Part shown: piece after piece, positions 1-11,563 of the stretch | Layout: every line of letters starts with the position of its first letter | How positions within the stretch are numbered: position 1 is the first letter of the stretch | Source of the DNA: a virus | Direction: 5' to 3' (one strand) | Virus genome (UHGV): UHGV-0208676 | Length of the DNA: 11,800 nucleotides | Position numbers and translations under genes: made by a program | Notes under the pieces: generated by a model | The model's input: the letters and a program-made list of their open reading frames with translations, nothing else | Told to the model about the DNA's origin: nothing | Databases searched by the model: none

Positions 1-2
1 AT

Positions 3-920
3 GCGATCACCTGGCTTCGTGATCACCTTCTGGAACTAAAAGATGGTGTTGGCGGCTGGCAAAATGCACTGGAAATCCTTGGTACATTCATCGCGGGTGT
101 CTGGGTATCCAGGGTTCTGGGGGCTTTCGGGAAAATATCAGGTTTGCCGGTCCCGCCGTGGTTAAAAGGCTGGATGGCTTATGCTGCGTATTTGTACTCT
201 GATCGCGAAAATATTGGTGCCAGTGCGAAGTCATCCTGGGATTACACGAAACAAAATATTGGAGATTCATTGCGCTGGCTTGGCATTGATACCGATTTTG
301 GTCGTAATCCTCATACCGTAAAAGGCGCAAATATTCAGTCAGATATTCCAGGTGCTGAGCCGGAACAATATGCACAGGCTACGAAACGAGGAGAACGGAA
401 TAACAATCCGGGAAACCTTAATTTTGCTGGTCAGGCAGGGGCTTCTCTTGAACGCCCGGGCGGGCGATTTGCCAGATTTGAAACTGCCTTTGATGGATTA
501 CGGGCTCTTGCTCGTCAGTTAATGCTGTACGCCGGACGGGGAATAAACAGTGTGGAGAAAATTATCTCTACCTGGGCACCTGCGTCTGATAATAACAACA
601 CAACAGCGTATATCAGGGCTGTATCGCAACGACTGGGAGTGGATCCCCGGGCTGCCCTGAATATGAGTGATCCGCAAACCATGTCAGCATTGATGAGCAG
701 CATTATCCAGCATGAGAATGGAAGAAATATCTATTCTCGAGAGCTGATTAATAAGGCTGCCGTGGCGGGAATTAGTGGCAAAGTGACAGAGGTTAACCAG
801 CAAAATACCTACCACATTTACGGTGGCGGAGATCCGCACGCTGTCGGTAATGAGGTTGCACGTCGGCAACAGTCTGCAAATGCTCAGGTCATGCGAAGTA
901 ATCAGGTGAGGGTGGGTTAG
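3..920 (+). CDS. Tail tape-measure protein, C-terminal part (5'-partial; frame is open from the window start)
   Basis: The frame of the 144..920 ORF has no stop back to base 3, so the gene continues upstream of the window. Hydrophobic stretch near the start (ILGTFIAGVWVSRVLGAF), Gly/Asn-rich segment, and position directly upstream of baseplate genes with TAGTG stop-start overlap to the next gene. Function inferred from position and composition only. Confidence 0.45.
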   Translation, partial: AITWLRDHLLELKDGVGGWQNALEILGTFIAGVWVSRVLGAFGKISGLPVPPWLKGWMAYAAYLYSDRENIGASAKSSWDYTKQNIGDSLRWLGIDTDFGRNPHTVKGANIQSDIPGAEPEQYAQATKRGERNNNPGNLNFAGQAGASLERPGGRFARFETAFDGLRALARQLMLYAGRGINSVEKIISTWAPASDNNNTTAYIRAVSQRLGVDPRAALNMSDPQTMSALMSSIIQHENGRNIYSRELINKAAVAGISGKVTEVNQQNTYHIYGGGDPHAVGNEVARRQQSANAQVMRSNQVRVG

Positions 921-1507
921 TGGATATTCTCTCTACACTTTTTCATCAGCAGAGCAGAAAAATAGGAATGATTGTTCCCAGTGTTGTTATTTCAGAGAAG
1001 CATACAGATATGCTTGAAATAACAGAGCATCCGGTAGAGGTCGGGGCCGCTGTCGCTGATCATGCCTATAAAAAACCGTCAGAAGTGGTGATGGAGGTTG
1101 GTTTCGCCGGTGGCGGCGCATTGCTGGATTTTGCCAGTAACCTGACGGCTACCAGCCTGCTCGGCCTGAGTCCTCAGCAGACGTATCAGGAGCTACTGGG
1201 TCTGCAGGAAAGCCGTATCCCCTTCGATGTGGTAACCGGTAAACGGCTGTACAGCAACATGTTGATCCGGGCGCTGGAAGTGACGACGGACAAGACAACC
1301 GAAAACGTCCTGTCCGCTGTCCTCACCCTGAGGGAGGTCATTATCTCCCGGACACAGCAGATTACCGTCGCGGATAAAACCAACATGAAGGAAGGGGCCA
1401 GCACGTCGGCGGTACAGAACAGCGGCAACAAAACCACAAAGCCTCCAGATACTTCACTGCTGAAAAGCATCACGGGTAACGTGGCGTCATTACTGGGGGG
1501 CGGCTAA
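920..1507 (+). CDS. Hypothetical phage tail/baseplate-associated protein (195 aa), GTG start
   Basis: Long ORF, GTG start overlapping the upstream stop (TAGTG) and TAATG overlap with the next gene, indicating translational coupling within a tail operon. No motif recognised. Confidence 0.5.
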   Translation: MDILSTLFHQQSRKIGMIVPSVVISEKHTDMLEITEHPVEVGAAVADHAYKKPSEVVMEVGFAGGGALLDFASNLTATSLLGLSPQQTYQELLGLQESRIPFDVVTGKRLYSNMLIRALEVTTDKTTENVLSAVLTLREVIISRTQQITVADKTNMKEGASTSAVQNSGNKTTKPPDTSLLKSITGNVASLLGGG

Positions 1508-1809
1508 TGACAATTCAGGAAATTCCGCTGACAGCGGACAACCAGCAGTTCAGCATCGTCCTGGGTGGTGTCACCTGGCGGATTAGCATCATATGGCGCG
1601 ATCTGTACTGGATTATGGACCTGCAGAACGACAGAGGGGAGCCGGTAATCTCCGGTATTCCTCTCGTCACTGGTGCTGAGCTGCTGGCGCAGTACGCCTG
1701 TATGGGGCTTGGTTTTAAGCTGGTGGTGGTCTGTGATGACAACACACAGGATTACCCCACAAAAACTGACCTGGGCGGTCGCAGCCATTTACTGGTATCA
1801 ACGGAGTAA
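1507..1809 (+). CDS. Hypothetical small phage tail protein (100 aa)
   Basis: ORF coupled to the upstream gene (TAATG) and ending 2 nt before the next start; codon usage and GC similar to flanking tail genes. Confidence 0.5.
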   Translation: MTIQEIPLTADNQQFSIVLGGVTWRISIIWRDLYWIMDLQNDRGEPVISGIPLVTGAELLAQYACMGLGFKLVVVCDDNTQDYPTKTDLGGRSHLLVSTE

Positions 1810-1811
1810 GC

Positions 1812-2876
1812 ATGTCACAGAACTGGATGAGACATTTCGAGCTGCAGCTTGTGGACGGGAACGGTCAGGGAATTGAGCTAAGTGATTTCAAAGTCACCTT
1901 TACGATCGACTGGTTCAACATCAGCAGCGCGTCCCGGGTAGGGACTATCAAAATTTATAACCTCTCGGCAGATACTGTGAACCGAATTACCGGGCAGGAG
2001 TTTTCGAAAGTGCGTCTGATTGCCGGTTACGACGGTATCGCGCCGGAGGTGTCAGCAAGCGACGTAGGGACCGTGCGGGAAGTTGACGCGGCGGACGTGG
2101 GCCAGAGAGATGGCCGCAACTACGGACTGATTTTCAGCGGTGAAATTCGCTACTCGGTCACAGGAAAAGACAGTCCGGTTGATACCTACGTCCTGATTCA
2201 GGCAGCAGATACTGATCTGGCTTTTGCTACCAGTATAACCTCACAGACGCTGGCTGCCGGTTACACGGTCGCTGATGTGAACCGTGCGCTGATGAAAGAC
2301 TTCGAAGCCAAAGGCGCGACCGAAGGCCTGACGCCTGAAATGCCTGCTACTGTATTCCCTCGGGGGCGGGTACTCTTTGGCATGACGCGGCATCTAATGG
2401 ATAACGTAGCCGGACAATGTGGCGCAACATGGCAATTCGTGGACGGTCAGCGCCAGATGGTGGCGAATAACGAATATGTTCACGAAGCGATTGTGCTCAA
2501 CAGCGCTACCGGGCTTATTGGAATGCCGCAGCAGACTATCGGTAACGGCGTAAACGTCCGCGCGCTTATTAATCCGAACATCCGGGTTAACGGGCTCATT
2601 CAGCTGGATCAGGCTTCCGTCTATCGTACCGCGTTGTCGAACAACGATATTGCGATGGCTGGTGGTCAGATCACCGACCAGAACACGGACGGAAATATCA
2701 CGCTCAGCGGCACCACATCGCAGCCTGCCAGCATCGCAACGGATGGCGTTTATATTGTGCGCGGGATTATGTACACTGGCGACACAAGGGGCCAGGCGTG
2801 GTACATGGATATGATGTGTGAAGCGCGTGGCGCGGCGGATCTTGTTTCCTCATCAGCGAGGGAAAGAGGGCTTTAA
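1812..2876 (+). CDS. Putative baseplate hub protein (Mu gp44 / P2 gpD-like) of a contractile tail
   Basis: 354-aa ORF with a GGAG RBS 5 nt upstream, placed between tape measure and spike as in Mu-type tail modules, with similar size to Mu gp44. Assignment is by synteny and size, not by a recognised motif. Confidence 0.45.
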   Translation: MSQNWMRHFELQLVDGNGQGIELSDFKVTFTIDWFNISSASRVGTIKIYNLSADTVNRITGQEFSKVRLIAGYDGIAPEVSASDVGTVREVDAADVGQRDGRNYGLIFSGEIRYSVTGKDSPVDTYVLIQAADTDLAFATSITSQTLAAGYTVADVNRALMKDFEAKGATEGLTPEMPATVFPRGRVLFGMTRHLMDNVAGQCGATWQFVDGQRQMVANNEYVHEAIVLNSATGLIGMPQQTIGNGVNVRALINPNIRVNGLIQLDQASVYRTALSNNDIAMAGGQITDQNTDGNITLSGTTSQPASIATDGVYIVRGIMYTGDTRGQAWYMDMMCEARGAADLVSSSARERGL

Positions 2877-3208
2877 TGAAACGGTTATGTTTGGCGTTAG
2901 TTATGATGGTTACTGCTCCGGCGATGGCTGCAATTCAGTGCGGCAACTACACGATGACCGGTGACGGAATGACTGTTATTAACGGTGAAACTGTCACATC
3001 ACAGAAGATAAAATTTCTGGGAAAAGATGGTGACTATTCAAACATGAAAATGGACATGGGCCTGATGCCTTCCCGTGATGGTAACAATTACGGCTTTGAG
3101 TTTGTGAAACGTAACGGAAAAGCTTTCCTGAACGTCCAGCTGCTGCAGAACAGCATGGACGCGCCGAAAATCATTGGATCTTTCCCGTGTAAAAAGGCGT
3201 TACGCTAA
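2876..3208 (+). CDS. Small secreted protein (110 aa) with N-terminal signal peptide, possible moron
   Basis: N-terminus MKRLCLALVMMVTAPAMAA has a basic n-region, hydrophobic core and AxA signal peptidase I site; two Cys (mature N-terminal region and C-terminus). TAATG overlap with the hub gene stop. GC appears lower than the hub gene. Confidence 0.55.
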   Translation: MKRLCLALVMMVTAPAMAAIQCGNYTMTGDGMTVINGETVTSQKIKFLGKDGDYSNMKMDMGLMPSRDGNNYGFEFVKRNGKAFLNVQLLQNSMDAPKIIGSFPCKKALR

Positions 3209-3245
3209 AGTTTGATGTCAATCTTCCGAGATGAGCGCTTTAAGG

Positions 3246-3274
3246 TTGACGAGATATTGTTCAAAGTTCACAAT
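3246..3274 (+). promoter_or_regulatory. Candidate sigma70-like promoter for the inserted two-gene cassette
   Basis: TTGACG at 3246-3251, 17-nt spacer, CACAAT at 3269-3274 (weak -10, repeated once as cacaatcacaat), about 30 nt upstream of the 3304 start. Sequence pattern only. Confidence 0.25.
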
Positions 3275-3303
3275 CACAATCCCTTTAGTAAGAGAAATAA
3301 TCC

Positions 3304-4077
3304 ATGGCGGCAGGCATCCCATTAGAAAAAGCGCAAAAATATATTGAACAATTCAATGCGCTTCTATTGGATAGGGAAAGTTTAGATCCCTTCACTGAAA
3401 AGAAAATTCGAGAGGAACTTTCTGTCTCTCCAACGCCTGCTACCAACATTGCACTATCTTATCTGGATGCAATAACCGGAAAGATTGAAAGCGCGTTACG
3501 TTATCTCAGGATAAGCCTAGAAGTAAACGATGTAACGTTGGCAATGCACTATCATCACATTTTAATTAATACATTTAGCTATAATGAACTCAAGGATGTC
3601 TATGTCCCGCTGGCAAAGAAGTATCGGACAAAACTCTTTAGTCACAACGCATACAGTTGGGCGTACCGTTGCGGCGAGCGTGAACAGTTAAAATTTTATA
3701 TGGAAGAGCACATTAAGCTTCTTTCTGAATCAGAAGGCAGGAGTAATGCTATGAAGCACAAAGAAGAACTCCTTGCAGAAATGGATAATTTCTATAGCGC
3801 CACACAGTGCTCGAAGGAACAGTTCCAGACCTTAGCATCCATAATCTGGGGCTTGCTAAGTGAATACAAGGCTACGACAGGTTTCGTTCAGCTTAGTGGA
3901 AGCGGTTGCTATGTTGTTGATATTAAAAATCTTGAGCCTAAAACTATTGCCAAAATGAACTTCGACTTGGCTGATAGAGTCTGCGCTGAATCTAAACTGG
4001 ATGATTGTTCCCTGTTAGCTAGATTTACCTCTCCGCGTCAGTTGCATACGGGGGTGAGCTACCATGTCGGTAACTAG
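3304..4077 (+). CDS. Hypothetical protein (257 aa), first gene of an AT-rich accessory cassette
   Basis: ORF in a visibly AT-rich segment compared with flanking baseplate genes; preceded by a 95-bp non-coding gap; 14-nt overlap with the downstream gene. No catalytic motif recognised by eye. Confidence 0.7.
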   Translation: MAAGIPLEKAQKYIEQFNALLLDRESLDPFTEKKIREELSVSPTPATNIALSYLDAITGKIESALRYLRISLEVNDVTLAMHYHHILINTFSYNELKDVYVPLAKKYRTKLFSHNAYSWAYRCGEREQLKFYMEEHIKLLSESEGRSNAMKHKEELLAEMDNFYSATQCSKEQFQTLASIIWGLLSEYKATTGFVQLSGSGCYVVDIKNLEPKTIAKMNFDLADRVCAESKLDDCSLLARFTSPRQLHTGVSYHVGN

Positions 4078-4459
4078 CAATCAGATTCTCGATACCGCTC
4101 GATTATGTCTGTCTGAAAATATTGAGAGTGGATTTCGAAGCGCTATCTCAAGGGCGTATTACAGTATGTTACATGAGTCTATTAGCTCACTTACTGCCAT
4201 ACCGCATTTTACCCATGAGCATCACAAAAATACTGTGGGTTATATGTCAACGCCCTCAGAGTGCAAATCAGAGCCATACCCGACAAATACACTGAAATCC
4301 CTAGCTTTCGTACTTCGCCAGTGGCGGGATGCTAGAAATGAAGCTGACTATGATCTGACGAATGTGACTGTTTCGAAAGAGATGGGACAGGATGCAATCG
4401 AGGCTGCTGAACTCTATTTTGAGCGCTGGGAACAGCTAAAGTCTGCTAGAGTTTCATGA
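4064..4459 (+). CDS. HEPN-like protein (131 aa), second gene of the accessory cassette
   Basis: N-terminal helix motif SAISRAYYSMLHES and C-terminal LRQWRDARNEADYD resemble conserved helices of small HEPN-domain proteins, with Tyr where the canonical Rx4-6H histidine is expected. GGGGTGAG RBS; followed directly by an intrinsic terminator. Confidence 0.65.
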   Translation: MSVTSNQILDTARLCLSENIESGFRSAISRAYYSMLHESISSLTAIPHFTHEHHKNTVGYMSTPSECKSEPYPTNTLKSLAFVLRQWRDARNEADYDLTNVTVSKEMGQDAIEAAELYFERWEQLKSARVS

Positions 4460-4476
4460 ATAAAATTAACGTTATC

Positions 4477-4500
4477 AAACCCGCTTCGGCGGGTTTTTTG
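4477..4500 (+). terminator. Rho-independent terminator after the accessory cassette
   Basis: Stem AAACCCGC (4477-4484), loop TTCG, stem GCGGGTTT (4489-4496), then a T-run to 4499; sits 18 nt after the 4459 stop and upstream of the spike RBS. Confidence 0.8.
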
Positions 4501-4518
4501 CTTTCTGGAGCCTACTAA

Positions 4519-5271
4519 ATGGCAGTATCTGACCAGACCCGCAGCGGCGACCTTGCCGAAACATTCAAATCTGAACGGGAAACAACAAAGAACCAGATCC
4601 GTGTCGCCTTGCCTGGCATTATTCAGTCATTCGATCCTGATGCGGTGACGGCAGTTGTGCAGCCTGCTATCCGTTCGGTTGAAAAGGATAATGACGGCAA
4701 CCGCATTACCAAAAATTACCCATTGCTGGTGGATGTGCCAGTGGTATTCCCGCGCGGCGGAGGATGTACGCTAACGTTCCCAGTTAAAGCCGGTGATGAA
4801 TGTTTGGTGATTTTTGCCGATCGTTGTATTGATTTCTGGTGGCAGAGTGGCGGGATACAGGAGTCGGTCGATGACAGAATGCATGATTTATCGGATGCGT
4901 TTTGTATTGTCGGTCCCCAGTCGCAGGCAAGGAAGATTAGCGGTATTAATACCAGTGCCACACAGTTGCGTAGTGATGACGGCAGCACCTATTTTGAGCT
5001 TAATCCTGATACCAGGAAAATTAAAATTGTCGCTCCAGGTGGTCTTGATGTGGTTGCCCCTCTGGCTGATTTTTCTGAGAAAGTAACCATTCATGGCCTG
5101 TTAACCTGGATGGGGGGCATGGTGGGGTCTGTGGTTTCTGGTGTGGCTTCAAAAATCACTGGTGCTGTTGAGTTCTTGGGGAGCGTGAAGGCTAACGGCA
5201 AGCCAATCGATGATACGCACACTCATGGTGGTGTTCAGCGCGGTGGAAGCAATACCGACGGAGTAAACTGA
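4519..5271 (+). CDS. Baseplate central spike protein (P2 gpV / Mu gp45 family)
   Basis: GGAG RBS 8 nt upstream; central region VVFPRGGGCTLTFPVKAGDECLVIF is typical of gpV/gp45 spike OB-fold region; C-terminus carries HTH (H-x-H) as in metal-binding spike tips; followed by W-, J- and I-like genes in canonical order. Confidence 0.8.
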   Translation: MAVSDQTRSGDLAETFKSERETTKNQIRVALPGIIQSFDPDAVTAVVQPAIRSVEKDNDGNRITKNYPLLVDVPVVFPRGGGCTLTFPVKAGDECLVIFADRCIDFWWQSGGIQESVDDRMHDLSDAFCIVGPQSQARKISGINTSATQLRSDDGSTYFELNPDTRKIKIVAPGGLDVVAPLADFSEKVTIHGLLTWMGGMVGSVVSGVASKITGAVEFLGSVKANGKPIDDTHTHGGVQRGGSNTDGVN

Positions 5272-5624
5272 TGCGATACAGACGTGAAGACGCCGATGGC
5301 GATTACACCTTTGGCAGCGGTGATGACACCTGGCTGATTAACTCACCGGAGGCCGTGGCGCAGGCGGTAAAAACGCGATTCGAATTGTGGTATGGGCAAT
5401 GGTTTCTCGACACCACCGAGGGGACTCCGTGGATCCAGTCCGTACTCGGTAAGCAGAAGCCGGAAACCTACAACCTGGCGATCCGTAAGCGCATCCTCGA
5501 AACGCAGGGCGTTAAATCAATCCTCTCTTTCAATACGACGCTGGATACCACGACCCGACGTGTCATGTTTTCCGCTGAAATCGACACTCTTTATGGAATA
5601 ACGACTGTTACATCGGAGGCGTAA
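5271..5624 (+). CDS. Baseplate wedge protein (gp25 / GPW-like, Mu gp46 position)
   Basis: 117-aa ORF with ATGA-type overlap to the spike gene, GGAG RBS; size and position between V-like and J-like genes match the gp25/W slot. Confidence 0.7.
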   Translation: MRYRREDADGDYTFGSGDDTWLINSPEAVAQAVKTRFELWYGQWFLDTTEGTPWIQSVLGKQKPETYNLAIRKRILETQGVKSILSFNTTLDTTTRRVMFSAEIDTLYGITTVTSEA

Positions 5625-6823
5625 TGGCTCTGAACCTTGATTCTCTCGGTTTATCTGCAAAGGTAACCGCAGAGGGGATCAGTGCGCCTGATTATCAGAC
5701 GATACTCAGCACCCTGATTAGCTATTTTCAGCAGATTTATGGCAGTGATGCCTACCTCGAACCGGACAGCAAAGACGGCCAGATGGTGGCTCTGATGGCG
5801 CTGGCGATTCATGATGCCAATAATACTGCGATAACTGTCTACAACTGTTTTTCACCGGCAACCGGCTATGGGGCTGCACTGACCAGTAACGTGAAAATAA
5901 ATGGTATTTCACGTAAAGGCGCGACGAACTCTACGGTTGATTTGCTTCTTACAGGAACTGCCGGAACAACCATCATTAATGGCAGCGTGAAAGATGGTAA
6001 TAATGTGATATGGCGTTTGCCTGCTTCAGTGGTGGTCGGCGTGGATGGTACAGTGATGGCGACCGCAACATGTTCCGTCAGTGGTGCAGTGGCGGCGCTG
6101 GCTGGAACTATCACTGAAATTAATACGCCAACCCGTGGCTGGGTTTCGGTAACCAATCCTGCTGCAGCTACTGTAGGCACTCCGGCAGAAACTGATGCGG
6201 AGTTACGTATCCGTCAGTCGCAAAGTGTTGCGTTGCCATCAATAACCCCATTTGAAGCACTGGATGGTGCTGTTTCTAATGTTACCGGTGTAACCCGCCA
6301 CAAACTCTATGAAAACGATACTGGTTCAGAGGACGGTAACGGGTTACCGCCACACTCTGTTGCTGTAATTGTGGATGGCGGTGATGTGACGGATATTGCT
6401 CAGGCTATCAGAGGAAATAAAGGCCAGGGGACAGCCACTCACGGTACAACATCCGTTACGGTTCCGGATAAATACGGCAATCCCCATGTAATCAAATTCT
6501 CGCGTTCCAGTGATGTGCCTGTTTATGCCCGGATTAAATTAAAAGTTTTTACGGGTTATACCTCACAGATAGGGCAGCAGATCCAGCAGGCTATTTCCGA
6601 CTATATCAATAGTCTGATGATTGGTGATTCGGTCCTTTTAAGTCGCATTTACTCACCGGCGAATCTTGGCGTGGTGAGTGGCGGGAATGCACGCTATTAC
6701 GATATTCAGGAACTGACGATTGGGAAATCCCCGGGGGCTTTGTCGTCATCAAACATTGATATCAGATACAACGAATCTGCGTCCTGTACCCCGGAAAATA
6801 TCGTTATAACGGTGGAGTCATGA
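5624..6823 (+). CDS. Baseplate J-like protein (P2 gpJ / Mu gp47 family)
   Basis: 399-aa ORF with GGAGG RBS 5 nt upstream; size and position after the gp25-like gene and before an I-like gene; Gly/Thr/Val-rich central region typical of J-family wedge proteins. Confidence 0.75.
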   Translation: MALNLDSLGLSAKVTAEGISAPDYQTILSTLISYFQQIYGSDAYLEPDSKDGQMVALMALAIHDANNTAITVYNCFSPATGYGAALTSNVKINGISRKGATNSTVDLLLTGTAGTTIINGSVKDGNNVIWRLPASVVVGVDGTVMATATCSVSGAVAALAGTITEINTPTRGWVSVTNPAAATVGTPAETDAELRIRQSQSVALPSITPFEALDGAVSNVTGVTRHKLYENDTGSEDGNGLPPHSVAVIVDGGDVTDIAQAIRGNKGQGTATHGTTSVTVPDKYGNPHVIKFSRSSDVPVYARIKLKVFTGYTSQIGQQIQQAISDYINSLMIGDSVLLSRIYSPANLGVVSGGNARYYDIQELTIGKSPGALSSSNIDIRYNESASCTPENIVITVES

Positions 6824-7500
6824 GCAAATACACCGAACTAATCACGAACTACCACGCCACCAAACCTAAATTTCTTGCGCATGTTGATCTGATGACCCGG
6901 CCGCTTATTGATGTTGCGGCGGCCACCAGAGGGTTGATTACTGCATTTGATATTGACTCCGCGGTTGGTGTGCAACTTGACATTCTTGGATTGTGGATCG
7001 GACGTAGCCGTGTTGTCAGCCAGCCTATCTCAGGTGTCTATTTCAGCTGGGATACCGACGGGCTTGGATATGATCAGGGTGTATGGCAGGGGCCATACGA
7101 TCCTGATTCCGGATACATGTACCTCAGCGATGAAACTTATCGTGTCATCCTTAAAGCGAAGATTGCGATTAATAACTGGGACGGACGGAATGATTCGCTT
7201 CCGGTAATTCTTGACGCGGCAACAGCAGGATCCGGGCTGCGAATGCAGATAGTCGATAACCAGGACATGACGATATCGGTCTGGGTCTTTCCTGATACTG
7301 ATATTTCAGATGTATCGCGTGAGTTAATTGCGGCAATTAAACAGGGGTATCTAACAGTAAAAGCCGCCGGGGTATGGGCGGGGGGCATTGAAACACCTTC
7401 GGTGGAAACTCCATCGGAAGGCTCTAAATTTTTTGGTTTTGATATGGATAACGAATTCATCAGTGGTTTTGATGTAGGGGCATGGGGAGTATTACTCTGA
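6820..7500 (+). CDS. Baseplate wedge / tail-fibre attachment protein (P2 gpI-like, Mu gp48 / YmfQ-like position)
   Basis: 226-aa ORF overlapping the J-like stop by 4 nt (ATGA) and overlapping the fibre start (TGATG at 7498-7502); canonical position between J and the fibre. Confidence 0.7.
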   Translation: MSKYTELITNYHATKPKFLAHVDLMTRPLIDVAAATRGLITAFDIDSAVGVQLDILGLWIGRSRVVSQPISGVYFSWDTDGLGYDQGVWQGPYDPDSGYMYLSDETYRVILKAKIAINNWDGRNDSLPVILDAATAGSGLRMQIVDNQDMTISVWVFPDTDISDVSRELIAAIKQGYLTVKAAGVWAGGIETPSVETPSEGSKFFGFDMDNEFISGFDVGAWGVLL

Positions 7501-9920
7501 TGGCAAAAAATGACTTTAAAGCATTCGCAACGGGTAAAAATGCCAATGTTATGTCGCAGGAGGAATGGGAAGCGTTGCCTGCGCTTTTATCCGGATTTAC
7601 AGCAGGGAAAGCATCCAGTGCGCAAGTCAATAAGGTTATTCGGCAGGCCAGCTTTATTGCTGCAGCTCTGGCCCAGTTTGTAAGTGACAAAACGCAACGG
7701 GATGTGCTTGATAATGGTGATCTGCCCGGTTTTGTTGAATTGCTGGGATCGGGGTTTGCTGTTGAATACCTGAGCCGCAAGAATCCGTTTGGCGATATCA
7801 AATCGGATGGCACGGTAGAACGCGCTCTTGAAAATCTGGGGTTACAGGATGTAAAAGCTGGTTCATTGAACAATCTGTACACTAACCATTCCCGTAGTGT
7901 CTTAATGGAATTGCCGTTATTATTCCCAGACTACGATACAGTGCTGGCTGCTCAGTCTGGTGCGGAATATATGTATCCACAGGGATTTGTGGTGACAGGA
8001 GAAAAAATCTATCTGAGTTATACCGTTGAGCCAAAGCAGACACGGAACGTTATAGTTCAGTACACAACATCCGGCGAATATGAGGGATATTATTATGTCG
8101 ATAATGGAGGTCGTGGCGTTGTCAGCGAAGGCCTTGTGGTGACAACGGATTACGGTGGATTACGTTTGTTCATGTCAGGAGAAAATGGATTACTGAAACA
8201 GTTTTCGCTTGATGGGGCAATTTCTGGTTCAGTATTGCCGTTAATTGATGAACATGACGTCGGTGTTTACAACCAGTTCAGCTATCGTAAAAACCGCTGG
8301 GTGGTTGAACAGTCAGCGCCGGAAGTGGGAGGCCTGATCACCCGCACAGTATTTGCGGTGTATGATTTTCAGTTTCGTCGGACGGGGACATTCACATTAC
8401 CGTTGCATGATTCCGGATATATCACGGAAAGCACAGACAGCTATGCAAGACGCTTCACAAAACGTCAGGGAATTGCTGTGGGAGACGATTATATTGCCTG
8501 TTCTTATGGTGGCTATTTTAATACCGGGGCATCAGCCGGATTTAACCAGTTTCAGGGGGTTAAGGTCTTTTCTCCGGATGGAGTAAAGCTGCAGGAATCC
8601 ATTCTTCATCCCCAAAAAATGATAGATGTGCTTACCAGCCAGGGTTTTACACCTTCGCGCATTGAGAACGAAGGAATTTGTATTTCTGACGACGGCGGCA
8701 GTATATATTCGCTTTATATCTTTCTGGAGCGTGGGTTACCACAGGCTTATCAGAAAGGAATTGTTCTGATGAAAGAGTTCAGTACTGGCAGAGATGCTAT
8801 TGATTTTCGTCAGGCAGCCTGGTTGTACACGGGGTTTGATGTGTCTCATGCCAGTATTGGAACATTTCCCCGTAGTGCCCAGGGGTTGGTAAATCCGGTG
8901 CTGGGGACTGTATTCACATCACTGTCTGAAATTCTGGCATATATGCGCTCTGTGAGTCAGAAATGGTTTTGTCTGCATACAACCACGACACCGATTAAAG
9001 ATCTGAGTGGAAATGATATTCCTGCTGACAATTATGTGTTCATCAAGAATGCTAATAACCAGACATTCTATATAACGCAGGAGTCAGCTGAAGGTGGAAT
9101 AAAATATAAAGCTGTCACCACAGGCAGCGGAGAATATGGTTTTCAGCGACAAAGAGAGGCAACCTGGTCCAATGTTATCACCATCGCACAAAAGAGCGAT
9201 GGTGAGGACCAGTTTAATCGTATTGTTGCCGCATCGAAAAGTGGTTCAGGTAACAATCAGGATAAAATACTGGTAGTTGACCAGCAGGCATCAGAGGGGA
9301 ATAACACACTGATAATTGGCGGTGCTTCATCTGTGTTCAGGTCAGCGACAGTGATTGATTTTGCAACGAATCAGGATGCAAATGCCACTGGAGGAGAAAA
9401 AAGATGGCGCATAGATTCATCAGGAAATCTCCGCCCTTATACAGATAATACGTATTCGATCGGTTATGCCTCATGGCGACCCGCACAGGTTTATGCAGCT
9501 ACAGGAAGTATCAGTACATCAGACCGGACTCGTAAACAGGACGAAACAATTCTGTCGGATGCAGAAAAAAGGGTTGCCAGAAAGTTGCTCGGGTATATCT
9601 GTCGGTTCCGTTTCAGGGATGCTGTGTCCAGCAAAGGGAATGCTGCCAGATGGCATGTAGGAGTGATTGCCCAGGACGTACAGAAGGTATTCTCTGAGGA
9701 AGGGCTGGATGCTTTTGATTACGGTATTTTGTGTCGTGATGAATATCCGGCGGAATATGAAGTGGTTTACGGGACTCGTATGGAGCTTGGTCCTGATGGA
9801 CTCCTTGCAATGGAAGAATACGATACCGGAGAGCGTAAGCTGGTCAGGGAGGCTGGCGAAATAATGTCTGTAAGGAATGATGAGCTGCATTATTTCATGT
9901 TGGCATCGCTGGCCAGTTAA
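7500..9920 (+). CDS. Tail fibre / tailspike protein with C-terminal intramolecular chaperone (peptidase S74-like) domain
   Basis: Start placed at ATG 7500 (GGGGAG RBS 10 nt upstream, TGATG coupling) rather than the ORF-track 7482. Conserved fibre N-terminal anchor (FATGKNANVMSQEEWEALP...KVIRQASFIAAALAQFV). C-terminal 133 aa (9519-9917) has S-D-x3-K (STSDRTRK) and GVIAQDVQKVF motifs typical of auto-cleaving chaperone domains. Confidence 0.75.
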   Translation: MAKNDFKAFATGKNANVMSQEEWEALPALLSGFTAGKASSAQVNKVIRQASFIAAALAQFVSDKTQRDVLDNGDLPGFVELLGSGFAVEYLSRKNPFGDIKSDGTVERALENLGLQDVKAGSLNNLYTNHSRSVLMELPLLFPDYDTVLAAQSGAEYMYPQGFVVTGEKIYLSYTVEPKQTRNVIVQYTTSGEYEGYYYVDNGGRGVVSEGLVVTTDYGGLRLFMSGENGLLKQFSLDGAISGSVLPLIDEHDVGVYNQFSYRKNRWVVEQSAPEVGGLITRTVFAVYDFQFRRTGTFTLPLHDSGYITESTDSYARRFTKRQGIAVGDDYIACSYGGYFNTGASAGFNQFQGVKVFSPDGVKLQESILHPQKMIDVLTSQGFTPSRIENEGICISDDGGSIYSLYIFLERGLPQAYQKGIVLMKEFSTGRDAIDFRQAAWLYTGFDVSHASIGTFPRSAQGLVNPVLGTVFTSLSEILAYMRSVSQKWFCLHTTTTPIKDLSGNDIPADNYVFIKNANNQTFYITQESAEGGIKYKAVTTGSGEYGFQRQREATWSNVITIAQKSDGEDQFNRIVAASKSGSGNNQDKILVVDQQASEGNNTLIIGGASSVFRSATVIDFATNQDANATGGEKRWRIDSSGNLRPYTDNTYSIGYASWRPAQVYAATGSISTSDRTRKQDETILSDAEKRVARKLLGYICRFRFRDAVSSKGNAARWHVGVIAQDVQKVFSEEGLDAFDYGILCRDEYPAEYEVVYGTRMELGPDGLLAMEEYDTGERKLVREAGEIMSVRNDELHYFMLASLAS

Positions 9921-9928
9921 TAATATTA

Positions 9929-9957
9929 ATGTAAGGAGTGATACAAGCTCCTTACAT
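9929..9957. repeat. Perfect 10-bp inverted repeat (hairpin) just downstream of the tail-fibre stop
   Basis: ATGTAAGGAG (9929-9938) and CTCCTTACAT (9948-9957) separated by a 9-nt loop; no T-run follows, so not a canonical intrinsic terminator. Confidence 0.5.
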
Positions 9958-10115
9958 CATGCATTTATGCGATTGTGCGTTATCCCATTGTTTGTTGCTG
10001 AGAGTGAAACACCGGAAACATACTGGGTGGATTGAAATTTTCGGGCGTGGCAAGCGTATGAATATGCCGTGGTGGGGCGGTTTTGATCCGCGCGCGTGCG
10101 ATGTGGCAAGCCTGA

Positions 10116-10442
10116 TGGATTTTGCTGCGCCAGCGTGGCGTGAATTTCCGAAGCCTGACTGACAGTATTGATACCAGTACCCCAATGGGCCGTTTCTTTT
10201 TTCATGTGATGGGTGCCCTGGCTGAAATGGAGCGTGAACTGATTGTTGAACGAACAAAAGCTGGACTGGAAGCTGCTCGCGCACAGGGACGAATTGGCGG
10301 TCGCCGTCCCAAACTTTCACCAGAACAATGGGCACAGGCCGGACGATTAATTACATCAGGAGTTCCTCGCCAGAAGGTGGCGATCATCTATGATGTTGGC
10401 GTATCGACTTTGTATAAGAAGTTTCCGGTCGGAGATAAATGA
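10116..10442 (+). pseudogene. DNA invertase (Pin/Gin/Hin serine recombinase family) remnant, C-terminal part only
   Basis: Translation VNFRSLTDSIDTSTPMGRFFFHVMGALAEMERELIVERTKAGLEAARAQGRIGGRRPKLSPEQWAQAGRL...STLYKK matches the C-terminal half of Pin/Gin-type invertases including the HTH region. The frame hits an in-frame TGA at 10113-10115 and the upstream translation has no invertase-like sequence, so the N-terminal catalytic Ser region is absent. The ORF-track start at 10122 is a TTG. Confidence 0.8.
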
Positions 10443-10740
10443 AACCGCAGCACGTCGTATGCAAGAACGTGCCACGGCTGGCTGATGGACGTTCGATAGC
10501 GCGAGTTTGAATGAAAATCAGCCGGAGATGATTTTACATAATTGCTACGGAATTATTCAATACAGGGATTGCTTGTGTCTGCATGGATTGACCTGAAATA
10601 GTCCCGAAAATTTCTCTAAAAAACTCGAAAACAATGGTAACTAATTGAATGTATTAATATGCAATGGTACGTGTTTGGGATTAAAAGATGAACGTGATTT
10701 TGTTTAACACATTAATTTTAAATGATTTTCTTGTTTGTTG

Positions 10741-10772
10741 ACGAAAACAGGAATCGTGTTCGGTCTCTTTTT
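10741..10772 (+). ncRNA. sdsR: Fragment resembling the 3' terminator hairpin of sRNA SdsR (RyeB); possible prophage attachment-site duplicate
   Basis: CGAAAACAGGAATCGTGTTCGGTCTCTTTTT resembles, from memory, the SdsR 3' end (CGAAUACAGGAAUCGUAUUCGGUCUCUUUUU) with a few mismatches. Sequence just upstream does not resemble the SdsR 5' part as I recall it. In E. coli K-12 the sdsR/ryeA locus lies next to pphA. Confidence 0.4.
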
Positions 10773-10906
10773 ATCTGTTAAAAGCCAGAAGCATTCCCTT
10801 CGCTGACTTTATAGTCAACCATAACACACACTCTACTGTCTGAGTCCAGCGTTTTTTAACATTCTTGTTAAGATTATGTGATCTTTAGCGCGGGAGGAAA
10901 ATATTG

Positions 10907-11563
10907 ATGAAACAGCCTGCGCCCGTTTATCAGAGAATTGCGGGTCATCAATGGCGACATATCTGGCTTTCAGGCGATATACACGGTTGTCTTGAGCAGT
11001 TGCGCCGCAAATTATGGCATTGTCGTTTTGATCCGTGGCGAGATTTACTTATCTCAGTGGGAGACGTTATCGATCGTGGGCCGCAAAGTTTACGTTGCCT
11101 GCAGTTACTGGAACAACATTGGGTTCGTGCGGTAAGAGGCAATCATGAACAGATGGCGATGGATGCGCTGGCATCCCGGCAGATGTCTTTATGGTTGATA
11201 AATGGCGGCGACTGGTTTATTGCGCTGGCAGATAATCAACAGAAACAAGCGAAAACGGCGCTGGAAAAATGTCAGCATTTGCCCTTTATTCTTGAATTAC
11301 ACAGTCGCACCGGCAAACATGTTATTGCTCATGCCGATTATCCAGATGATGTCTATGAATGGCAAAAGGACGTCGATTTGCATCAGGTCTTGTGGAGCCG
11401 CTCGCGATTAGGTGAACGCCAAAAAGGGCAGGGAATTGCAGGTGCTGATCATTTCTGGTTTGGTCATACACCTTTGCGCCATCGCGTGGATATTGGCAAC
11501 CTGCATTATATTGATACCGGTGCTGTCTTTGGGGGAGAACTGACTCTTGTGCAATTGCAATAA
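10907..11563 (+). CDS. pphA: Serine/threonine protein phosphatase 1 (PP1/lambda-phosphatase-like metallophosphatase)
   Basis: Motifs GDIHG, GDVIDRG and GNHE present; 218 aa from ATG 10907 (GGAGG RBS about 9 nt upstream; the ORF-track 10904 is a TTG one codon earlier). N-terminus MKQPAPVYQRIAGHQWRHIWLSGDIHGC matches my recollection of E. coli PrpA; convergent with a yebW-like gene as in K-12. Confidence 0.85.
   Translation: MKQPAPVYQRIAGHQWRHIWLSGDIHGCLEQLRRKLWHCRFDPWRDLLISVGDVIDRGPQSLRCLQLLEQHWVRAVRGNHEQMAMDALASRQMSLWLINGGDWFIALADNQQKQAKTALEKCQHLPFILELHSRTGKHVIAHADYPDDVYEWQKDVDLHQVLWSRSRLGERQKGQGIAGADHFWFGHTPLRHRVDIGNLHYIDTGAVFGGELTLVQLQ

Follow-up and report, generated by a model that had tools for sequence, protein, structure and literature searches.

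A truncated pin invertase gene very probably left behind by a tail-fibre module swap in an Escherichia coli prophage

Downstream of a prophage tail-fibre gene, next to the chromosomal gene pphA, an open reading frame of E. coli encodes the C-terminal part of a Pin/Gin-type DNA invertase. Where did the rest of the gene go, and with it the invertible DNA segment on which such an enzyme acts? A sequence-only reading of the locus had proposed that the replacement of a fibre module removed both. We analysed the window, i.e. the whole stretch of 11,800 nucleotides containing this frame, by comparison with complete bacterial genomes, sequenced phages and protein profiles. The stretch belongs to the E. 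coli chromosome. At its right end, the part carrying pphA and yebW matches all of the 5,426 complete E. coli genomes; from base 1 to ~10741 it consists of prophage DNA, namely the end that encodes tail, baseplate and fibre. Among sequenced phages, the induced myoviruses vB_EcoM-606R2, 611R5 and 683R1 come nearest, with 98.5% identity over window 1-7843; Yersinia phage YP3 and Salmonella phage SEN34 are remoter relatives. The host element is a SEN34/vB_EcoM-606R2-like myovirus prophage inserted at the pphA-yebW locus, with the invertase remnant at its right end (Table 1). Rfam and tRNA scans of the window returned no match. The spacer at the prophage end (window 10431-10773) is 87% identical to the Actinobacillus pleuropneumoniae phage record PP818812.1, which was unexpected for an E. 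coli prophage/chromosome junction.

Table 1. Position of the features discussed in the text, in window coordinates, with the basis of each assignment.
Feature	Position	Strand	Basis and remarks
Tail-fibre gene	7500..9920	+	ORF list, tblastn, Pfam, PHROG tail spike and tail fiber matches
Conserved 40-bp block, encodes RKNPFGDIKSDGT	7773..7812	+	Three-way alignment; common to resident-type and imported fibres, all three sequence types
Single degenerate crossover-like site, CTCTTGAAAATC TG GGGTTACAGGAT	7825..7850	+	Half-site weight matrix (PWM); pixL-homologous position; without inverted partner
Hairpin, 9-bp stem tgtaaggag / ctccttaca	9930..9956	+	Read from sequence; directly past fibre stop codon, no T-run
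Decayed fragment of 97-aa small membrane-protein gene (phrog_1443)	9975..10131	+	PHROG, DNA identity, local alignment
Junction zone, imperfect 17-nt microhomology TGCGCCAGCGTGGCGTG	10126..10142	+	Four-way and pairwise alignment, base by base; common to small gene and pin
Pin/Gin-type DNA invertase remnant, codons ~82-184 of 184 and stop	10131..10442	+	Pfam, alignments to Gin and Pin
Prophage-side spacer, pin to chromosome	10443..10741	none	K-12-type prophage-free genomes match from ~10742 only
pphA (serine/threonine phosphatase 1), chromosomal neighbour fixing the locus	10907..11563	+	Annotation in relatives; Pfam Metallophos

The translation of the frame 10116-10442 begins WILLRQRGVNFRSL and ends in KKFPVGDK before the stop codon (in full, WILLRQRGVNFRSLTDSIDTSTPMGRFFFHVMGALAEMERELIVERTKAGLEAARAQGRIGGRRPKLSPEQWAQAGRLITSGVPRQKVAIIYDVGVSTLYKKFPVGDK); as had been seen, it is closed upstream by a TGA at 10113-10115. 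This frame matched the Pfam Resolvase profile over positions 89-144 of 145 (E 1.4e-18) and HTH_7 over positions 1-43 of 45 (E 1.9e-14), and PHROGs assigned the remnant to DNA invertase. It aligned with residues 80-181 of Gin (PDB 3uj3, E 3e-48), with the Hin DNA-binding domain 1hcr, and with residues 80-184 of the intact 184-aa Pin found at the same chromosomal locus in strain CD45 (97% identity). These matches bear out that only the C-terminal part of a Pin/Gin-type invertase is left: helix E, the oligomerisation helix, and the HTH_7 DNA-binding domain are kept along with the end of the catalytic domain, the catalytic Ser9 region being absent. Alignment to full-length invertases, which the sequence-only reading had put forward as a check, located the breakpoint at pin codon ~82. 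The extent first given to the remnant, 10116-10442, is thus correct at the 3' end and wrong at the 5' end, where pin-derived DNA begins at ~10131 and 10116-10130 belong to a fragment of another gene read out of frame. The reading frame is unbroken across the 103 codons of the remnant. Over codons 83-184 it differs from CD45 Pin at 14 positions, 12 synonymous and two non-synonymous; codon 82 adds a third amino-acid difference (Q in the window, E in CD45), Q being the allele of strain CS6L. The remnant is 96.5-97% identical to same-locus pin alleles versus 86-91% to pins elsewhere and is therefore the resident prophage's own pin.

Intact relatives show what this prophage lost. Strains CS6L and CD45 carry the same prophage at the same site, in the order fibre, tfa, inverted tfa, inverted alternative fibre end and pinE, the last gene lying 460 bp upstream of pphA, and phage vB_EcoM-606R2 has the same layout. 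The CS6L and CD45 backbone is 97% identical to the window up to position 7843; homology to CS6L covers window 4475-7843 and resumes at 10126. The invertible segment of CS6L is bounded by the inverted repeats AAACCTTGGTTTGGGAGAAG and CTTCTCCCAAACCAACGTTT, which contain TTGGTTTGGGAGAAGG, the inversion site of the e14 P-segment (PMC12529663). When the CS6L fibre was compared to the window by tblastn, residues 1-115 alone matched, at 7500-7844, and, queried in the same way, neither Tfa protein and none of the alternative fibre ends of CS6L or CD45 matched the window. Two opposed fibre C-terminal exons, each with its tail fibre assembly gene as in the Mu S/U-S'/U' or e14 StfE/TfaE arrangement, were not found. 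Comparison with intact relatives, also proposed beforehand, therefore establishes that same-locus prophages carry the invertible segment, the pix inverted repeats and pin, and the homology gap from 7843 to 10126, with no Tfa or alternative end left inside it, upholds the proposal that a module replacement deleted the invertible segment together with the 5' end of the invertase gene. Another part of the tail region also differs: window 3196-4474, in the baseplate region (ORFs 3304-4077 and 4064-4459), has no DNA match in the prophages of CS6L and strain P4, which are elsewhere 93-98% identical, and represents a second swapped module.

The replacing DNA is a fibre module. From ~7813 to 10131 the resident sequence is exchanged for the body of an S74-chaperone fibre and its flank, a gain of ~2.3 kb of foreign DNA made up of the fibre body and a fragment of the gene phrog_1443. 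The mechanical start of the fibre ORF is at 7482 (812 aa), relatives start at the ATG at 7500 (806 aa), and the stop codon is at 9918-9920. Its N-terminal 115 aa are the constant part of the resident prophage and the remainder is the imported body. The Peptidase_S74 profile (PF13884) matched residues 680-742 of the 812-aa ORF (nt 9519-9707) with E 1.7e-9 and 38.2 bits versus a cut-off of 22, in agreement with the earlier claim that the fibre ends in a chaperone domain of its own; this C-terminal domain places it among the Peptidase_S74 intramolecular-chaperone fibres. The fibre of THO-006, from an unrelated prophage, is 98% identical to that of the window from residue 91. Copies of this body, 97-98% identical, occur in the THO-006 prophage alongside an e14/Mu-like baseplate (gpV, GP46, gpJ, YmfQ, StfP), in many ST131 genomes, and at the pphA locus of four complete genomes, strain P4 among them; at the DNA level it was found in none of 50,697 sequenced phage records. 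Homology to THO-006 begins at 7773 and identity to CS6L fades past ~7812. The 40-bp block delimited in this way lies just upstream of the pixL position, at the boundary between the constant and variable parts of the fibre, and is likely to be where homologous crossover took place on the left side of the module exchange. In RefSeq, the S74 fibre of P4 (L001 10099-12522) and THO-006 (L003 3624-5999) is split into a partial pseudogene and a 'tail fiber domain-containing protein' of its own. By tblastn the THO-006 fibre is a single unbroken frame from residue 91 to 805, and the RefSeq split probably arose as an artefact of annotating a chimeric fibre.

The DNA between the fibre and the remnant also came from elsewhere. 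The phrog_1443 fragment corresponds to about nt 86-246 of the 294 nt of the intact gene, the first 85 nt being absent and frame-breaking indels occurring in the first 50 nt of what is left. It is housed in a chimeric ORF of 74 codons (9938-10162), fused out of frame to pin, which matched phrog_1443 over positions 42-84 of 97 (E 1.8e-14) and phrog_34165 (E 1.5e-19). At the DNA level the fragment is 93-95% identical to intact copies, of which ~1,900 E. coli genomes (A26 and AS19 being the strains examined) and 53 records of lambdoid phages each have one directly 3' of a tailspike or fibre gene. The fragment arrived with the imported fibre module. A full-length phrog_1443 ORF of ~97 codons does not exist here, its 5' part being missing or frame-broken and its 3' end being replaced by pin. 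The codons for "WILL" and the TGA at 10113-10115 that precedes the remnant arise from reading this fragment in the frame of pin. Between 9921-9974 and the 5' end of the small gene, similarity did not exceed that of shuffled sequences. The hairpin at 9930-9956, a perfect 9-bp stem, is kept in P4 and THO-006 with an altered loop region.

The right join was mapped by alignment to a single base. At the junction the small gene reads ...TGCGCCGGTGGTGGCGTGTCTG, pin reads ...TGCGTCAGCGTGGCGTGAATTTC and the window reads TGCGCCAGCGTGGCGTGAATTTC. C10130 is of the small-gene type and A10132 of the pin type, so that the switch occurs at C10131, inside pin codon 82; since this point sits in an imperfect microhomology, the join is illegitimate, neither site-specific nor homologous. 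Window 9921-10125 was contiguous in none of the 5,426 complete E. coli genomes, and the junction-spanning 30-mer GATTTTGCTGCGCCAGCGTGGCGTGAATTT was absent from the genome_contigs and metagenome_contigs collections. The exact junction being seen nowhere else, its reality rests on one sequence. Uniqueness in every collection searched and a position within microhomology are also what would be expected if an assembler had joined the end of a fibre/small-gene contig to that of a pin-pphA contig via the short motif GTGGCGTG. We consider such an assembly chimera very improbable: an imperfect overlap of 17 nt would not suffice for assemblers to merge contigs, backbone identity is unbroken on either side, and four complete genomes with the same fibre at the same locus and an even shorter pin remnant show that the replacement is biologically real.

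Among the 5,426 complete genomes, pin from at least codon 81 onward is contiguous with pphA in 49, the full-length pin region is so in 42, and the S74 fibre is followed by a shorter pin remnant at the pphA locus in four (P4 type). In the P4 type, the small-gene fragment ends at the equivalent of window 10080 and is followed by 166 unrelated base pairs and the last 20 codons of pin. This alternative junction, composed of the same fibre with 160 bp of flank, the 166 bp and the last 64 bp of pin, is common to P4 and THO-006. The 166-bp insert (L001 12685-12850 in P4, L003 6162-6327 in THO-006) stands in for window 10081-10378 and showed no similarity to any of the loci compared. The spacer and the last 64 bp of pin in P4 match the resident type and not that of THO-006; the 3' scrap of pin therefore served as right-hand homology in at least one cassette transfer. 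Other decayed forms of pin occur: pinE of CS6L is full-length with a 1-nt frameshift, phage vB_EcoM-606R2 has codons 1 to ~88 left (L004 15489-15803), and K-12 pinH (b2648) has codons 38-94 left (L008 7066-7305). The gene decays repeatedly in SEN34/606R2-like prophages and elsewhere. In three independent truncations the breakpoint falls in the range of codons 81-94, the fragment beginning at 82 in the window and ending at ~88 in 606R2 and at 94 in pinH, a sample too small to speak of a hotspot.

Could the fragment still be a working protein? Inversion switches of fibre segments have recently been linked to phage defence in K-12. The truncated product, made of helix E and the HTH domain, might bind pix/gix-type sites of other prophages and modulate their inversion, or the chimeric ORF 9938-10162 might itself be functional. 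The intact frame of 103 codons and the mostly synonymous differences from intact alleles would fit such a role, and a site-binding fragment could in principle interfere where the invertases of different prophages act in trans on one another's segments (PMC12529663). The synonymous bias is, however, not evidence of selection on the fragment, because divergence of working alleles before a recent truncation gives the same pattern. No ATG with a Shine-Dalgarno sequence was found at the 5' end of the remnant, and a promoter scan of 9700-10950 returned weak consensus matches, not above chance; a terminator scan of the same region found no canonical intrinsic terminator. Nor is the truncated form conserved: it has no other copy, and P4-type relatives keep 20 codons only. 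A functional fragment is thus very unlikely in our estimation. With no plausible translation start and no remaining substrate, we take the sequence to be a recent pseudogene that has not yet decayed, and it is very probable that this is a non-functional 3' piece of pin left by the fibre-module swap. It would be a long shot to suppose that a dead but expressed helix-E/HTH protein sits on pix/gix-type sites of other prophages and damps or biases their inversion, or, more broadly, that the fibre block and the 3' end of pin are homology arms by which receptor-binding cassettes move between unrelated prophage families.

We then considered the missing half of the gene. In the Gin/Hin/Cin family, the Fis-dependent recombinational enhancer sits in the 5' part of the invertase gene, and by analogy any enhancer in that part of pin would be gone along with the 5' 243 nt that are missing from the window. 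The catalytic nucleophile of Gin is Ser9 (PMC3575834), which falls within the part that the remnant has lost. An intact N-terminal half in another frame or on the other strand, which would make this a full-length gene broken by a frameshift or a sequencing error, was looked for and rejected. Pin residues 1-80 compared to all six frames of the window by tblastn gave a best E of 0.64 over 7 aa, and pin 5' DNA gave by blastn chance 13-16-mers only. The statement that no catalytic N-terminal region lies upstream therefore extends to the whole window and both strands, and the gene is truly truncated: of the hallmarks of a serine recombinase DNA invertase, helix E and HTH_7 are present and the N-terminal catalytic domain with its nucleophilic serine is not. 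Although the frameshifted but full-length pinE of CS6L is a precedent for such a lesion, the identification of the DNA upstream of the remnant as phrog_1443, added to these negative searches, leaves this explanation with practically no probability.

Crossover sites were searched with a half-site weight matrix derived from gix and hix half-sites and the pix sites read in CS6L. One site in the window stood out, the gix/hix-like 26-mer CTCTTGAAAATCTGGGGTTACAGGAT at 7825-7850 within the fibre gene, with a score of 16.7, compared with 34.2 and 25.3 for the intact pix sites of CS6L and 606R2 and with a mean maximum of 9.9 ± 2.5 (largest 21.7) in 100 shuffles; the next best site in the window (7.7) was within shuffle noise. 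Three-way alignment showed that its position is homologous to pixL of the intact relatives. A search of the window for the pix 20-mer with up to 3 mismatches found no match. The remnants of gix/pix-like sites that had been suspected in 9921-10121 and at the 3' end of the fibre gene were not there, the matrix scan detecting no scoring site in 9921-10125 and the fibre 3' end, and the weak candidate lies in the fibre gene instead. Two inverted 26-bp crossover sites bounding a segment are thus not present in the window; a lone degenerate site has no partner to recombine with, which makes inversion impossible also by invertases that other prophages supply in trans. The site at 7825-7850 travels with the imported S74 fibre in P4 and THO-006, also across unrelated prophages. 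It could be what is left of an older inversion system in the donor, or just a conserved LENLGL coding motif. That Pin itself excised the segment by site-specific deletion between crossover sites, with no module replacement, is almost certainly wrong, as the left boundary does fall within ~12 bp of the pixL-homologous site but the right one lies inside pin coding sequence with no crossover-like site there, and ~2.3 kb of foreign DNA gained is beyond what a deletion explains.

On this basis, we propose the following origin by module replacement. The ancestor would have had the Mu/P1/e14 layout, that is, the constant part of the fibre, pixL, a variable end with its Tfa, an inverted Tfa with the alternative end, pixR and pin. 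A foreign cassette, in which a long fibre body ending in an S74 intramolecular chaperone was followed by a fragment of the downstream phrog_1443 gene, would have replaced everything from just before pixL through pin codon 81, either in one step or by replacement followed by deletion. The 40-bp block suggests that the left join was a homologous exchange at a natural module boundary, and the alignment places the right join, as an illegitimate event, in the 17-nt imperfect microhomology. The loss would have comprised pixR, the alternative fibre end, the two Tfa genes and pin codons 1-81 with the catalytic serine, leaving a fibre that is fixed in one form and does not need a separate chaperone. 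The remnant is an ordinary case of prophage decay that followed the exchange of a tail-fibre module, and its significance goes little beyond labelling: it should be annotated as a pin pseudogene fused to a phrog_1443 pseudogene, and the fibre should be read as fixed, with no host-range switching, and self-chaperoning. It nevertheless provides a clean example of a fibre-module swap, in which one side was joined by homologous exchange where the constant part meets the variable part and the other through microhomology. It also shows one and the same S74 fibre cassette, a piece of pin attached, circulating among E. coli prophage families that are unrelated.

Compared with known systems, the remnant is closest to PinE of e14 and to the Pin alleles of SEN34/606R2-like prophages such as that of CD45, with 97% amino-acid identity over residues 80-184, the same place as last prophage gene before pphA and the same downstream spacer. 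Unlike these alleles, it lacks residues 1-81, pixR and the whole invertible segment, and it cannot be an active invertase. Its homology to Gin of Mu (PDB 3uj3, 4m6f) relates it to Cin of P1 and Hin of Salmonella as well, and the ancestral layout kept by its relatives is of the same fibre-switching inversion type; it differs from Gin, Cin and Hin in being the helix E and HTH half alone, without a pair of crossover sites and with the gene's 5' part gone. K-12 pinH (b2648) is likewise an annotated invertase fragment without an invertible segment but has another breakpoint and another partner, the window fragment being a 3' part fused to a phrog_1443 fragment. As for the fibre, it resembles S74 (endosialidase-type) fibres and tailspikes, its residues 641-802 being 35% identical to the C-terminus of the A26 tailspike, whose gene precedes an intact phrog_1443. 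Unlike the usual S74 fibres, it is grafted on a constant N-terminus that is normally served by a separate Tfa and an inversion switch.
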